64,000 nt of DNA from Candidatus Oxydemutatoraceae bacterium (GTDB taxonomy: Bacteria; Pseudomonadota; Gammaproteobacteria; Poriferisulfidales; Oxydemutatoraceae), in NCBI GenBank assembly GCA_965219575.1, contig OZ244779.1:332769-396768 (forward strand). The letters run 5' to 3'. The notes under the pieces were generated by a model. That model saw nothing but the letters and a program-made list of their open reading frames with translations, made no database searches and was not told the origin of the DNA. Positions 4,082 through 60,364 of this stretch are shown one piece after another. The position numbers and the translations under genes were made by a program. Positions within the stretch are counted from its first letter, which is position 1. Each line of letters starts with the position of its first letter.

Positions 4082-5068
4082 CTATTGAAGCGGTCCTTCC
4101 AAGAAAACTTTGCTACGAATGTAAATAGCTAGCGGATCGCCAATAGTGACCGTGGTTTGACGGCATGATCGGTTATTCATTGCTTGAGTCTCGGTCAGGT
4201 TACTGGGCGGGTTACTTTCCCCTATCACTATGGAAAACTGCTCTTCACCCTCAATACGATTGTCTCTCACTATCAGGTTTTCCAATGTGAAGCTGTTTTC
4301 GCCTGCTTTGATGACCACCGGAGTTATGGGGTTATAGTCAACATTCTTGAACGCCGTTTCATCGGTATAGATGAGTGTTACCGTGGTATTCCTATTCAAG
4401 CCTATCGTGGTATCGGCATTCTCCCCTCTGCGCAGTTCAATTATCGGTAGGTTGGTATTATCGCCCTCTCGAACGGAATAACTCCGTTGCGAGAAGCAAA
4501 GTAAGTATTCATCGTCCAATACCCTGAAAGTGATAGAACTGTTGGTACCACTGCGTCTGATATTGCTGGAGATATTATTAGGTGTAGGCATTGAGCCTAG
4601 AGAAATTAATATATCATTATCGCCGCCGGGATTTAAAGCAGAGTTATCGTTGAGCTGCCATTCCAATGTTGCGGTTTGCGCGTTTGCACCGCTAAAGGTA
4701 ATACTTTGAGTAAAAAGTTCCTTATTAAAATTTAGGCTAACACCATCACCGGATACGAGTCTTAGAATCCCAGTTTGTTGAGGAATCCCAGGTTGTTGAG
4801 TTAGCTGCCCTTCTGTGGAGAAAGTTAGCTGTAGTGATTGACCGGTTCTAAGCGGTCGGCTTAAAGAGATGGAAAACCGTATCTTGGGTCCGACAAGCCT
4901 ATCGCCTTGAGGGATGCCTTCGTATATCGGTGAAGGAGACAATCGCTCTATGCTATATATCAAGTCTTGTGCGACGGCAGACTGTGTAAAGCAAAGAGCC
5001 AACAAAAACAAGCCGAATAGCAATACACGCCGACGATAGGTATTGTTGTTGTGGACATAAGTATTCAT
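4082..5068 (-). CDS. Secreted beta-rich protein with Calx-beta-like domain and C-terminal IRSKVFLEGPLQ tag
   Basis: Signal peptide ending AVA-Q; FSQRSYSVREGD...TA..NVDY...DNRIEGEEQF is Calx-beta-like; C-terminus shared with 60476-60985. Confidence 0.75.
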   Translation of the reverse strand: MNTYVHNNNTYRRRVLLFGLFLLALCFTQSAVAQDLIYSIERLSPSPIYEGIPQGDRLVGPKIRFSISLSRPLRTGQSLQLTFSTEGQLTQQPGIPQQTGILRLVSGDGVSLNFNKELFTQSITFSGANAQTATLEWQLNDNSALNPGGDNDILISLGSMPTPNNISSNIRRSGTNSSITFRVLDDEYLLCFSQRSYSVREGDNTNLPIIELRRGENADTTIGLNRNTTVTLIYTDETAFKNVDYNPITPVVIKAGENSFTLENLIVRDNRIEGEEQFSIVIGESNPPSNLTETQAMNNRSCRQTTVTIGDPLAIYIRSKVFLEGPLQ

Positions 5069-27643: not shown

Positions 27644-27900
27644 GCCGTATAGAAATCCAATATCAAAAAAGGATAATTATAAAGGATTATTATTCCTATA
27701 CATATAACTCGACTAAAAGCAAACTTTTATGATGAACCAAAGATACCTCTTTGAAGAAGAGGTTGATTTTCACAACAGAGATATGAATACTAAAAAAGAA
27801 TATGGTGGAATAGCATTAGAGTTTTGTAGATTGCCACCTGAATAATATCTACAGTGCTTAAAACTTTTGTCGTATGCGGCAACCTTTTGCCTATTGCCCT

Positions 27901-27967
27901 AAAAAGCAAAGGCCACTGCCGAAGCAGTGGCCTGCACCCGCCAAACCGAAGTCGGGCGGGGGGTTTA
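27901..27967 (-). ncRNA. Candidate small structured RNA, copy 1 (two C(UUCG)G hairpins plus U-tract)
   Basis: Minus strand reads CCCGCCCGAC-TTCG-GTTTGGCGGG, then GGCCACTGC-TTCG-GCAGTGGCC, then TTTGCTTTTT; promoter directly upstream. Confidence 0.6.
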
Positions 27968-27972
27968 CCTGT

Positions 27973-28000
27973 ATTATATGTATGACAAAAGAAAAATCAA
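27973..28000 (-). promoter_or_regulatory. Sigma70-like promoter for RNA copy 1
   Basis: TTGATT-16 nt-TATAAT on the minus strand. Confidence 0.6.
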
Positions 28001-28331
28001 TAGTCCTTGGAATATACAATCAAAATAGTAGTGTTATAAACTAAAATTCCGATATTAACGCCATTCTTTAGGGCAAAAAAACTCGCCTTGTTTATCTTTA
28101 AGTTTAAGAGGAAATTGAGCATTTTTAAGCCTTTCACTGGAAATTTTTCTTCTTAGAGAGGAATATTGGTGTAACTTTGACACCCAAAATTTGGCAGGTG
28201 TGATAAGTCCAATAGGTAATTTCAAAATCGTTTTTATATATTTTAACGGTTCGGTAAGATCCGAGTCGTTTGATAGAAGAATGGGAACATCGCATTCGTT
28301 CTTCAAACAATCTATCAACATAAAAGTTGAG

Positions 28332-29084
28332 GGTACTTGACTAGTTTAGGGAGTACGATTTGATAAAATAACTAGTAATGACAACACCTAACAGACATTT
28401 TAGAAGGGCACATATTTCAAACAGGAAAATAAGGCAAATTGTGAGGTATTTTGCCCTTGATCTGAGTGCAACCCAAATCGCACAAGCAGCCGGGGTCAAT
28501 AGAAATACCGCGAATAGATATGTCAATATAATCCGAGAAAGAATTGCACAACACTGCGAGCAGACGAGCCTATTCTCTGGCGAGGTAGAGTTCGATGAGT
28601 CCTACTTCGGTGGTCGCAAAAAGGGAGACAAAAGAGGTAGAGGTGCACCGAACAAAGTACCGGTATTCGGCATATTAAAAAGAGATGGGAAGGTCTATAC
28701 GCAGGTGATACGCAATGCTTCAAAGAGCGAGATACGACCTATTATCAAGCGTTTAGTGGGACACAGGAGTACTATATACACAGATAAATGGAGAGCTTAT
28801 GACGGGTTGGTGTTGAATGGATACAAACACTACCGCATCAATCATTCAAAGACACTGGGCAGTGGTACTAGACATATCAATGGCATTGAAAACTTCTGGG
28901 AATGGGCCAAAAGGAGATTAACAAAGTTCTGCGGCGTGTCGAGAAAACATTTCCACCTTCATCTAAAAGAATGCGAGTGGCGATTCAATCACAGACACCT
29001 TTCAGCCTCCCAAAAGTATGAGATGCTAATGAAGATGGTAAGGGATATTTGAGTGGGACTTTGTCCCTAAACTAGTCAAGTACC
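28332..29084 (+). mobile_element. IS1595-family (IS1016-like) insertion sequence, 753 bp
   Basis: Perfect 21-bp TIRs GGTACTTGACTAGTTTAGGGA / TCCCTAAACTAGTCAAGTACC; flanking 8-mers AAGTTGAG / TAGTTGAG. Confidence 0.92.
28378..29052 (+). CDS. IS1595-family DDE transposase
   Basis: EFDESYFGG, RGRG, IYTDKWRAY, HINGIENFW, LKECEWRFN. Confidence 0.92.
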   Translation: MTTPNRHFRRAHISNRKIRQIVRYFALDLSATQIAQAAGVNRNTANRYVNIIRERIAQHCEQTSLFSGEVEFDESYFGGRKKGDKRGRGAPNKVPVFGILKRDGKVYTQVIRNASKSEIRPIIKRLVGHRSTIYTDKWRAYDGLVLNGYKHYRINHSKTLGSGTRHINGIENFWEWAKRRLTKFCGVSRKHFHLHLKECEWRFNHRHLSASQKYEMLMKMVRDI

Positions 29085-29462
29085 TAGTTGAGATATTAAC
29101 ATCCGAACCTTTCTCTTCAAATTTAGAAACTTTTACTATCTTTCTATATGAGGGGTTACCTTTTTCTAAAAGTTCACCTTTGACGGATCGTCTCTTAAAT
29201 GATCCAAAATGAATTTCTATTTCAGGGATTGTTCGTAAAGCTCCTAGATAAACATCCTGTCTTTGTCTTACACCGGGGTTACTGTCGTTGGGAATCACCT
29301 TTGCCGTAAAATAGCGTATTTTTGAAATTTTACAATCCTTAAAACTGAAAGACTGAATAAGTGCCTTTAAGTCTAGCCACTTATATTTCGTCTTTTTTAT
29401 ACTGTGATAAAGATTGAAACCATCTACATAGATAATATAATTTTTCAAATTAAACCTACCTT

Positions 29463-29530
29463 AAAAAGCACAAGCCACCGCCGAAGCAGTGGCTCTGCAC
29501 CCGCCAAACCGAAGTCGGACGGGGGGATTG
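29463..29530 (-). ncRNA. Candidate small structured RNA, copy 2, directly upstream of the NYN gene
   Basis: Same two UUCG hairpins with pairing-preserving changes; U-tract followed by AAGGTAGG and the NYN TTG start at 29448. Confidence 0.65.
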
Positions 29531-29535
29531 CGTAT

Positions 29536-29563
29536 ATTATATGTAGGGTTGGAAAGAAATCAA
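29536..29563 (-). promoter_or_regulatory. Sigma70-like promoter for RNA copy 2 and the NYN gene
   Basis: TTGATT-16 nt-TATAAT; boxes identical to copy 1 while the spacer has diverged. Confidence 0.6.
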
Positions 29564-29624
29564 GAATTTAAGCAGACGAAATTTGGTGGTGCTTGGCGGC
29601 TGGGGCTGTACCCTGGCCTTGATT

Positions 29625-29855
29625 TTATAGTTTAACTATTAAAGCTACAATTATTCCGACGGATGCAATGACTATTCCACCAACGGCATACATCTGCTTC
29701 ACTAGCCTAACTTCTAAGTTAGCTAGTTCTGTTTCCAAGTCTGCCTTCGTAGCCACCTCTTTTGAATCGGCAATATTGGCTACCGCTTCCTTTGCTTCGG
29801 CATCGGTGACACCGTCTACCTTTCTTAAAATATTGTACAGGGCTATATCAGTCAT
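29625..29855 (-). CDS. Small coiled-coil membrane-anchored protein (DUF1640/CCDC90-like), paralog 1
   Basis: IALY..L....AEAKEAVA.....EVATKAD plus a C-terminal TM helix; four paralogs elsewhere in the window. Confidence 0.7.
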   Translation of the reverse strand: MTDIALYNILRKVDGVTDAEAKEAVANIADSKEVATKADLETELANLEVRLVKQMYAVGGIVIASVGIIVALIVKL

Positions 29856-29954
29856 ATCTTAATACCATTTGTTGCTTCAAAACCATACTATACATTAAAT
29901 GTATACGCAATTATCTACATAATTTATGTTCGCAGATACTCTGATACTTCCCCT

Positions 29955-30015
29955 AAAAAGCAAAGGCCACCGCCGAAGCAGTGGCCTGCACCCGCCAAAC
30001 CGAAGTCGGGCGGGG
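29955..30015 (-). repeat. Third copy of the double-UUCG-hairpin element (no recognisable promoter)
   Basis: Near-identical to 27901-27961. Confidence 0.75.
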
Positions 30016-30145
30016 ACATCTGCAGACCCTTAGCAACCACCCCGTGGAAAGGCTTTACATTTTGTACTACGTTAAAGTTATGCACAACGTTACGCCACTT
30101 GTGCTACTGCAACAAGTGGCGGTTCCACTCGGCGGTTCTGTTGCG

Positions 30146-30491
30146 CCTGCCACCCCTTCAGAGGAGGGGAATGTACTGACACTTTACTTGTGCAGATACG
30201 ACGTGGCTGTTGAAAAAGTATTTCATAGAGTGGTAGGGGCGGACTTATATGTCCGCCCGTAACGGGTTGCGCCTGCATGATTTATACATTCATTCATCCA
30301 ATTTATGGAAACCAAAACTAAATGGCGCAAGCGGTTACGGCTGTGCAGAACGGCACTTAAGGGCAGACACACAGGTCTGCCCCTACGGCTTGGTGGTTAT
30401 TACAAATTCACGGCGCAAGCGGTTACGGTTGCACGCTGACGATACTTTTTCAACAGCCCGACGACGCAACTACTCCGTCAGGCTGCGTCTG
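30146..30491. repeat. Composite MITE/REP-like repeat (core 30203-30460)
   Basis: GGCTGTTGAAAAAGTA...TACTTTTTCAACAGCCC ends, GTAGGGGCGGAC palindrome and CCCCTTCAGAGGAGGGG hairpin. Confidence 0.85.
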
Positions 30492-59366: not shown

Positions 59367-59398
59367 AGTAATTTACAGACAACAAAGAGAGATTAGAT

Positions 59399-59662
59399 AT
59401 GTCAGAAATAGCACTTTATGACACCTTAAGAAAAATACCGGAAGTGTCCGATGCCGAAGCAAAGGAAGCGGTTGCCGATGTTGCGAGTTCAAAGGAAATG
59501 GCAACGAAGGCAGATATAGCAGAAGTAAAGGGAGAGCTAAAGGCAGATATAGCAGAACTAAAGGCGGACAACAAGGCGGTAAAGTGGATGTTGGGTTTAT
59601 TGCTAGCGATAAATGTTGCCTTTATTGTGTCGGCTGTTAGCTTGCTAGTTAGGTTTGCATAA
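59399..59662 (+). CDS. Small coiled-coil membrane-anchored protein, paralog 4
   Basis: MSEIALYDTLRKI...MATKADIAEVK...LKAD..KWMLGLL TM. Confidence 0.78.
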   Translation: MSEIALYDTLRKIPEVSDAEAKEAVADVASSKEMATKADIAEVKGELKADIAELKADNKAVKWMLGLLLAINVAFIVSAVSLLVRFA

Positions 59663-59978: not shown

Positions 59979-60010
59979 AATAATTCACAGACAACAAAGG
60001 GAGATTAGAT

Positions 60011-60364
60011 ATGTCAGAAATAGCACTTTACGACACATTAAGAAAAATAGACGGAGTATCCGATGCCGAAGCAAAGGAAGCTGTTGCCGATGTTGCGAGT
60101 AATAAAGATGTTGCGACAAAGGCAGATATAATAGAGCTAAAAGCGGAAACAAAAACAGATATCAAAGATATGGCGACCAAGTCCGATATAGCGGAGGTAA
60201 AGACCGATATAGCAGAGGTAAAGACTGATATAGCAGAGCTAAAGGCAGATGTAACAGAATTAAAGGCAGACGGCAGGGCTATGAAGTGGATGTTGGGTTT
60301 ATTGCTGGCGATAAATGTTGCCTTTATTGTGTCGGCTGTTAGCTTGCTAGTTAGGTTTGCATAA
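60011..60364 (+). CDS. Small coiled-coil membrane-anchored protein, paralog 5 (expanded heptads)
   Basis: Two ATK(A/S)D motifs and 21-nt K(T/S/A)DIAEV repeats. Confidence 0.78.
   Translation: MSEIALYDTLRKIDGVSDAEAKEAVADVASNKDVATKADIIELKAETKTDIKDMATKSDIAEVKTDIAEVKTDIAELKADVTELKADGRAMKWMLGLLLAINVAFIVSAVSLLVRFA

Follow-up and report, generated by a model that had tools for sequence, protein, structure and literature searches.

Type III toxin–antitoxin (TA) loci of the ToxIN, CptIN and TenpIN kinds combine a constitutive promoter, an antitoxic RNA, a palindromic terminator and an endoribonuclease gene, with the terminator setting the ratio of RNA to toxin; the available sections of the survey that defines them place such loci on plasmids, chromosomes and phages, mention one toxIN locus with a downstream RNA that has its own promoter, and expect more families to exist (PMC3401426). 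In the available sections of its own report, AvcID is called type III though its RNA, AvcI, is not a ToxI-like repeat and its toxin, AvcD, is not ToxN-like (PMC10511110); it may be read as a precedent for widening the class. HEC-09 is presented, in the accessible part of a preprint, as a single-gene candidate defence gene embedded in Hma (helicase–methylase–ATPase) systems (bioRxiv 10.1101/2024.01.29.577857). In the AbiF–RCd22 pair of Clostridioides difficile, as far as the available account goes, a conserved structured non-coding RNA is found just 5′ of a toxic Abi protein. The abiF RNA motif was reportedly first recognised by its conserved position beside a protein family. Here we analyse a 64,000-nucleotide (nt) stretch of contig OZ244779.1 from Candidatus Oxydemutatoraceae bacterium (positions 332,769 to 396,768 of the forward strand; hereafter the window), in which a short structured element recurs around a gene for a NYN-domain protein. 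Comparative sequence evidence gives good support to the view that this element is a putative small-RNA gene and the conserved partner of predicted ribonucleases of the HEC-09-family NYN (PIN-like) type.

The element measures about 65–77 nt and is present in the window as three minus-strand copies dispersed over 2.1 kb, with one unit per promoter. Copy 2 (29458..29535; terminator stem 29495–29472, U-tract end 29463) lies directly 5′ of the NYN gene, copy 1 (27896..27972; terminator stem 27933–27910) stands alone 3′ of it, and copy 3 (29950..30026; terminator stem 29987–29964) precedes an open reading frame (ORF) for a protein of 76 amino acids (aa). A 24-nt core (27932–27955, 29495–29518 and 29986–30009) and a 20-nt hairpin-2 core (27912–27931, 29474–29493 and 29966–29985) are each repeated exactly three times, always on the minus strand, where shuffled sequences lead one to expect none. 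Every copy folds into two C(UUCG)G hairpins (minimum free energies −39.0, −33.7 and −38.8 kcal/mol; z = −3.7, −2.6 and −3.3 against dinucleotide shuffles) behind a short, single-stranded, A/C-rich 5′ end, which in copy 2 is a C-rich tail. The base of hairpin 1 pairs a C-run with a G-run, and hairpin 2 forms with the U-tract an intrinsic terminator, and a scan for such sites picked it out in each copy (12 terminator-like sites in 3 kb vs 2.4 expected). Sigma-70-like promoters of the form TTGATT-16-TATAAT (10/12 matches, minus strand) directly precede copy 2 (29536..29563) and copy 1 (27973..28000); copy 3 has no recognisable promoter, its best match being 4/12. Two covariance models, R1 (trained only on copies from the closely related Porisulfidus-type loci described below and run without filters) and R3 (rebuilt from the distant loci that R1 matched), retrieved the three copies at 74 bits or more, namely 103, 97.6 and 95.3 bits with R1 and 85.9, 85.0 and 74.4 bits with R3 for copies 1, 2 and 3, respectively; the next match in the 64 kb reached 11.7–13.9 bits.

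These results agree with the preliminary description of this DNA, which had reported three minus-strand copies with two C(UUCG)G hairpins and a U-tract (borne out by core counts, folds and terminator scan), the TTGATT-16-TATAAT boxes directly upstream of copies 1 and 2, and the placement of copy 2 about 15 nt before the NYN start and of copy 1 just 3′ of the gene. The measured distances are 14 nt from the end of the copy 2 U-tract (29463) to the NYN TTG start (29448) and about 90 nt from the NYN stop codon to the start of copy 1. It had also considered that the element might be scattered; within 64 kb only the three copies score. The pair-preserving stem differences on which it had relied are likewise all present, namely C-G to U-G in hairpin 1 and, in hairpin 2, G-C replaced by A-U at the second pair and an inner pair that varies between U-A, U-G and C-G, but they are too few to serve as evidence on their own.

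Relatives were sought by an exact 22-mer scan, which missed diverged neighbouring copies and yielded matches in three records: two Candidatus Porisulfidus metagenome-assembled genomes and one 3-kb contig binned as Aestuariivita. The window and loci L001, L002 and L003 together make up the Porisulfidus-type set, over which R1 found 11 copies at 77.9 bits or more, with the next match at 13.9 bits. All four genomes have one copy directly 5′ of NYN and another directly 3′ of it, and L001 carries in addition two promoter–RNA units (copies c and d) with no gene behind them. A TTGATTT...ACATATAAT promoter accompanies nine of the ten untruncated copies; its spacer is of two types that track position before or after NYN, and copy 1 of the window has the type seen in the post-NYN copies of L001, L002 and L003. 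The order of the NYN and 76-aa cassettes in the window differs from that in the other three genomes, and the copies have therefore acted as points of recombination. Two further features of these relatives may be recorded: a promoter–RNA–repeat block of about 290 bp is present in L001 as a tandem duplicate, and in L003, a Porisulfidus metagenome-assembled genome, two atpG-3′/atpD-5′ fragments (1019–1576 and 4419–5003) bracket the NYN island, suggesting insertion-site duplication or an assembly artefact.

The association extends far beyond these genomes. A tblastn search with the intact protein returned 445 plasmid and 3 phage records, all at less than 60% identity, and 22 distant loci (26–43% identity) from Proteobacteria, Spirochaetes, Acidobacteria, Actinobacteria and phages were taken, none being dropped. 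A promoter–hairpin–terminator RNA lies beside NYN in 20 of the 22, with one further weak case (L024, marginal, E 0.11). In 17 of these 20 the RNA is directly upstream on the same strand; in the other three, from Actinobacteria and a mycobacterial prophage (L010, L011 and L023), it is downstream on the opposite strand, convergent with NYN and equipped with its own TTGACA-17/18 promoter. When the 170 nt upstream were folded, a hairpin followed by a strong terminator was found directly before most NYN starts. The linkage spans plasmids of 3.4–4.6 kb and a prophage. The preliminary description had tied the RNA to NYN from the window alone and had named homologous NYN genes lacking the element as one observation that would undo this link; with the element in 4/4 Porisulfidus-type genomes and 20/22 distant homologues, the link is well supported by linkage across phyla.

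The count of 20 comprises 13 out-of-sample detections at E<0.01, five training members of what we term class A (see below) and two weak R1 matches at the right position; it rests throughout on covariance models with hold-outs, whose E-values are rough. With R1, detections at E<0.01 included Leptospira L004 (25.6 bits, E 7.6e-6), Paenarthrobacter L010 (31.2 bits, E 2.7e-7) and the mycobacterial prophage L023 (E 0.0075), while Granulicella L005 and Phaeobacter L006 gave matches at E 0.03–0.06 in the right place. R2, built from five class A loci, scored the hold-outs L013, L025, L020, L008 and L021 at 41–51 bits, L009 at 30 bits and L019 at 21.6 bits, against 19–29 bits for bare terminators elsewhere; L012, L014, L015, L018 and L022 are sequence-alignable with the R2 hold-outs. 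R3, the model of the window-like class B, detected the hold-outs E. coli L009, Streptomyces L017, Thiothrix L008, Frondihabitans L011 and Serratia L007 at E 4e-4 to 4e-3, and these matches coincide with sites previously marked by eye. A 'two hairpins plus U-tract' descriptor contributed to none of the counts and was abandoned: its first form was too permissive, and its strict form missed class A terminators, in which an A-run pairs with the U-tract.

Several of the distant loci have peculiarities of their own. A weak R3 match in L012 (1329–1415, minus strand; 14.4 bits, E 0.048), just 3′ of the NYN gene of a Klebsiella plasmid and on the other strand, could represent a second RNA or no more than a bidirectional terminator. 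In L006, L007 and L014 the annotated NYN starts (1462, 1459 and 659) fall inside the predicted RNA or terminator, tblastn placing the starts 20–40 nt downstream, and the annotated ones are probably wrong. The class A NYN proteins of L020 (662–1618) and L021 (680–1657) have C-terminal extensions of about 100 aa, annotated as nicB and as an Xre/MbcA/ParS-type antitoxin-binding domain, and in Thiothrix L008 a 120-aa helix-turn-helix-like ORF (1133–1495) is located between RNA and NYN.

The RNAs constitute a new structured family that is absent from Rfam and has two sequence classes but one architecture: an A/C-rich 5′ tail, hairpin 1 with its C-run/G-run, a short linker and the terminator. Class A, sequence-alignable in nine gamma-, beta- and alphaproteobacterial plasmids and a degenerate tenth, has a leader with an ACAACUC box, a hairpin 1 of about 38 nt, often with an AUUMAGUU loop, and a terminator of the form AAAAACCGSC...GSCGGUUUUUU. 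Its RNAs correspond to a single clade of NYN proteins (11/11 rows, support 98/96) in a tree computed without the frameshifted L011. In the cross-phylum alignment A13, 97.1% of cells are paired and 15 of 21 pairs are changed on both sides; in the class A alignment A11, the figures are 97.4% and 10 of 20. None of 500 shuffles was as good in either case, and sliding the partner by one column reduced pairing to 39–66% in both. A MAFFT alignment of all class A leaders was discarded in favour of model realignment, since the inner part of hairpin 1 was mis-registered and RNAalifold recovered from it only the outer stem and the terminator. Covariation is strong across phyla (A13 and A11) but not significant among the Porisulfidus-type copies.

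A correctly placed sigma-70 match of at least 9/12 accompanies 20 of 31 RNA units (12 of 21 distant ones); among 3000 random positions the corresponding rate is 1.6%. The NYN start falls about 0 to 35 nt past the end of the model match, which itself runs some 6–10 nt beyond the U-tract, in 15 of the 17 co-directional loci; in Leptospira L004 the ATG abuts the U-tract, and the exceptions are L017 (about 95 nt) and L008, with its intervening 120-aa ORF. This leaves no room for a separate NYN promoter, and NYN would therefore be expressed by terminator read-through. A tandem-repeat search (TRF) applied to L009 alone, a 4.6-kb ColE1-type E. coli plasmid, showed 2.6–3.1 tandem copies of a 29–33-nt hairpin unit (a number also put at about 3.6) ahead of the terminator and then NYN. 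Of 5,426 complete E. coli genomes, 10 carry this cassette, in every instance on small plasmids. Rfam 15 gave no match at the gathering score in the window, and at E<=1–10 the scan of the island and of all the 22 distant loci except L008 produced only chance-level matches or ColE1 RNAI elsewhere on the plasmids, in keeping with the earlier remark that the RNA is not a named family. At the level of titles and abstracts, the literature held nothing linking NYN with type III toxin–antitoxin or with an RNA partner.

The protein partner is interrupted in the window. An IS1595-family insertion sequence (IS) of 754 bp (28332..29085, plus strand; Pfam DDE_Tnp_IS1595, 6.6e-35) carrying its transposase (28378–29052, plus strand) splits the minus-strand gene after codon 121; it has inverted ends of about 20 bp (GGTACTTGACTAGTTTAGGG) and is flanked by a 7-bp target duplication, CTCAACT, at 29092–29086 and 28331–28325. 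The N-terminal 121 codons (29086..29448, with the TTG start at 29448) and the C-terminal part (28055..28324, consisting of 89 codons at 28324–28058 and the stop codon at 28055–28057) align to the intact L001 protein at 77% and 74% identity, respectively (alignment A10). The repaired product has 210 aa (121 aa, 29448–29086, plus 89 aa, 28324–28058), exactly as had been claimed, and the IS is the only damage seen. All conserved acidic and polar residues of the family are kept across the two halves: D9, N12, E111, E112, K113, D116 and N118 in the first, D141 and D143 in the second. Decay of the gene recurs in L011, where NYN is frameshifted into two annotated pieces; such decay would be expected if the gene were costly or toxic, but does not prove that it is. 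Because the IS breaks NYN and only the RNA genes are intact, the system is probably inactive in this genome.

Searched separately against Pfam, the two window halves gave no match at E<0.01. The intact L001 orthologue matches Pfam NYN (PF01936; 35.4 bits against a cut-off of 24.2, E 1.9e-8) and, over residues 2–209 and positions 2–202 of the 203 in the profile, PADLOC HEC-09 (PDLC04163; E 1.3e-43, 147 bits). Its AlphaFold model (mean predicted local distance difference test score 94.5) has 2qip and MARF1 NYN domains as the top Foldseek matches in the PDB; a sequence search of the PDB returned nothing at E<=1, so that NYN structures were found by fold alone, and NCBIfam had no match for either the NYN or the 76-aa ORF. 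At E<=1e-10 the NYN/HEC-09 family numbers 6,601 clusters at 90% identity and 2,435 representatives at 50%, whose only names in the sources are 'NYN domain-containing' or 'LabA/DUF88'. On plasmids it is represented by 445 PLSDB records, among them small cryptic plasmids of E. coli and large ones of Klebsiella, Xanthomonas and Leptospira.

How this locus relates to the described systems can be stated feature by feature. Like type III TA loci, it has a promoter, an RNA, a terminator and a predicted RNase gene in that order, and the likeness extends to the shared occurrence on plasmids, chromosomes and phages, to downstream RNAs with their own promoters and to the tandem units, of about 33 nt, of the E. 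coli plasmid NYN locus. Among the features by which, in the available text, type III loci are recognised (PMC3401426), a terminator with U-tract lies 14 nt before the NYN start and likewise in the 17 co-directional homologous loci, and a −35/−10 promoter at the RNA start, there preferred rather than strictly demanded, is found with 10/12 matches at copies 1 and 2. The tandem repeat of the same list is absent from the window, which has one unit per promoter, an array being seen only in L009; the window and most homologues contain one two-hairpin unit and not tandem pseudoknot repeats. Nor does the protein show homology to Kid/MazF-like ToxN/AbiQ: Pfam recognises only NYN, the best Foldseek matches are 2qip and MARF1 NYN domains, and the fold is NYN/PIN-like. 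The locus is not a member of ToxIN, CptIN or TenpIN because toxin fold and repeat structure both differ, and the type III-like reading offered by the preliminary description survives in its layout of promoter, RNA, terminator and RNase but not as regards a ToxN-like toxin or an RNA array. A search strategy based on ToxN homology and tandem repeats, as set out in the available text of PMC3401426, could not have found a locus of the NYN type.

The nearest functional analogues are AbiF–RCd22 and AvcID. The first shares the position of a conserved structured RNA just 5′ of the protein gene, but its protein is of the HEPN-like Abi_2/AbiD/F type rather than NYN and its RNA is different, Rfam giving no abiF match here; the toxin of the second is a deoxycytidylate deaminase, and its RNA and protein families are unrelated to the NYN pair. 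To HEC-09 as characterised in the accessible part of its preprint (bioRxiv 10.1101/2024.01.29.577857), the NYN protein is linked by the full-length profile match, by MARF1-like NYN structural similarity and by conserved aspartates; the difference lies in the setting, which here is the interval between atpC and a kinase gene, with a 76-aa ORF, and not the interior of an Hma system. The terms 'non-coding' and 'ncRNA' occur zero times in the available preprint text (bioRxiv 10.1101/2024.01.29.577857). The nuclease family is common on plasmids and is catalogued as a candidate defence gene; the conserved, promoter-driven small RNA would supply it with a concrete and cheaply testable mechanism, and the pair possibly represents a new type III-like class.

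The best explanation, to which we give about even odds, is that the locus is a type III-like toxin–antitoxin or abortive-infection module in which the abundant terminated RNA binds and silences a predicted NYN RNase made from rare read-through. [quoted passage not shown] Should transcription of the locus cease because a phage takes over or because the plasmid or island is lost, the RNA, being unstable, would decay and NYN would cut cellular or phage RNA; the extra copies 1 and 3, like the tandem units of E. coli plasmids, would raise RNA dosage. The co-directional RNAs have no excess complementarity to the NYN mRNA compared with shuffled RNA (z +0.2 to +1.5 in five loci, −0.7 in L010), and the strong duplex values of L011 and L023 arise only when the overlapping downstream region is included; protein binding is therefore favoured over pairing in the manner of type I systems, and a type I antisense RNA antitoxin is ruled out by duplex energies no better than those of shuffled RNA. 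A number of points weigh against a silencing RNA of this kind. NYN toxicity, RNA production and RNA–NYN binding are all putative here, and when HEC-09 was cloned with its native promoter region it protected from none of the phages tested, according to the available preprint text (bioRxiv 10.1101/2024.01.29.577857). The RNA of the window and most homologues is a single unit rather than the tandem array required of classical type III loci. The distant loci were hand-picked for taxonomic spread and are not a random sample, and in one of them (L016) a recognisable element was not found. Alignments A13 and A11 were fitted to the model, and structure was therefore favoured in them, while among nine Porisulfidus-type copies 98.9% of cells pair, yet 288–361 of 500 column shuffles do equally well, making the pair-preserving differences within this set indistinguishable from chance; structure is kept there, but on variation too slight to demonstrate it. 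Finally, for copy number across the source genome the evidence is a single exact-match scan, which missed diverged neighbouring copies.

A further point against it, the co-directional arrangement in 17 of 20 loci with the RNA abutting the start codon, is precisely how a purely cis-acting leader would look. Such a leader would be a 5′ attenuator that keeps NYN low by termination and an occluded ribosome-binding site, without any trans function; in a variant, NYN may, like RNase III and RNase E, control its own synthesis by cleaving this leader or binding to it. The short and regular spacing to the NYN start (about 0 to 35 nt past the model match in 15 of 17, 14 nt from the U-tract in the window, none in Leptospira) and the dependence of NYN on read-through fit this explanation, which we nevertheless think somewhat unlikely: in three loci the RNA lies downstream of NYN on the other strand, behind a promoter of its own, promoter–RNA units stand alone with no NYN behind them (copy 1 of the window, copies c and d of L001), and the tandem hairpin 1 of L009 has no obvious use in an attenuator. 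In particular, the convergent, independent RNA gene of the three actinobacterial loci speaks for a partner that acts in trans and not for a leader alone. Independent RNA genes, co-inheritance of RNA and protein, and the unpaired A/C-rich 5′ end, which in both classes has a C-run at the base of hairpin 1 or immediately ahead of it, could also be accounted for if the small RNA were a cofactor or guide, that is, a specificity or activating subunit of NYN whose C-rich 5′ end might pair with G-rich targets, Shine–Dalgarno regions for instance, or if NYN matured a regulatory small RNA. That is quite improbable, however, given that the C-run is mostly paired within hairpin 1 and not free, and that the RNA has no variable, spacer-like segment; we know of no precedent for guided NYN or PIN nucleases in bacteria. 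Least probable by far, and largely refuted, is an unrelated genomic repeat, a generic promoter/terminator or repetitive extragenic palindrome (REP)-like sequence that lies beside NYN by chance. The island is indeed rich in other repeats, RNA copies also precede the 76-aa ORF, and the cassette order was reshuffled between genomes by recombination at the copies; but the other ~61 kb of the window contain no copies, the same architecture accompanies NYN in unrelated phyla, on 3.4–4.6-kb plasmids and in a prophage, and paralogues of the 76-aa protein elsewhere in the window lack the element. Integron attC-like sites, suggested by the cassette reshuffling, were set aside, with no search of the window for an integrase made; the same RNA is found with NYN on those plasmids and in the prophage. 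A more speculative extension, which we judge unlikely, is that the NYN/HEC-09 family is as a rule two-component, with an RNA subunit that has been overlooked. Beyond serving as an antidote, the RNA would act as gate or guide: its conserved A/C-rich 5′ end and the hairpin clamped by C:G pairs would set the PIN-like active site in place, so that the nuclease would be switched on or retargeted once an invader caused the RNA to be lost, cleaved or displaced. If true, RNA-controlled nucleases of a new kind would be present in at least five phyla, on chromosomes, plasmids and phages alike, and this would explain why HEC-09 looked inert in a standard assay.

The locus occupies an AT-rich island of 2.6 kb, read on the minus strand, with a GC content of 0.34–0.44 against 0.45–0.60 in the flanks. 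One border is atpC (30919–30500, minus strand) and the other an APH-type, homoserine-kinase-like gene (27643–26705, minus strand); between them follow, in the direction of the minus strand, RNA copy 3, the 76-aa ORF, promoter and copy 2, the split NYN gene, and promoter and copy 1. A scan of the window for tRNA and tmRNA genes found none. The 76-aa ORF (29625..29855, minus strand), between copies 3 and 2, encodes a coiled-coil protein with a C-terminal membrane helix that belongs to no Pfam, NCBIfam or PADLOC family, and its cassette follows an RNA copy in all four Porisulfidus-type genomes. Paralogues at 59372–59662 and 59984–60364 (both plus strand), sharing the motif ...ALY..LRK....SDAEAKEAVA...., are distant and have no RNA element nearby. 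As these window paralogues lack the RNA and the distant NYN loci lack the 76-aa ORF, a role of the protein as system component or type I toxin was ruled out, and it probably stands outside the RNA–NYN pair.

Two minor observations concern the margins of the island. A 38-codon ORF on the opposite strand (27729–27845, plus strand), within the 250 nt that separate copy 1 from the kinase gene, may be a gene relic. REP-like repeats, among them a recurring GTACTTTTTCAACAG string and GGGCGGAC...GTCCGCCC hairpins, flank the island both in the window (~30030–30400) and in L001 (3640–3900 and 5400–5920).

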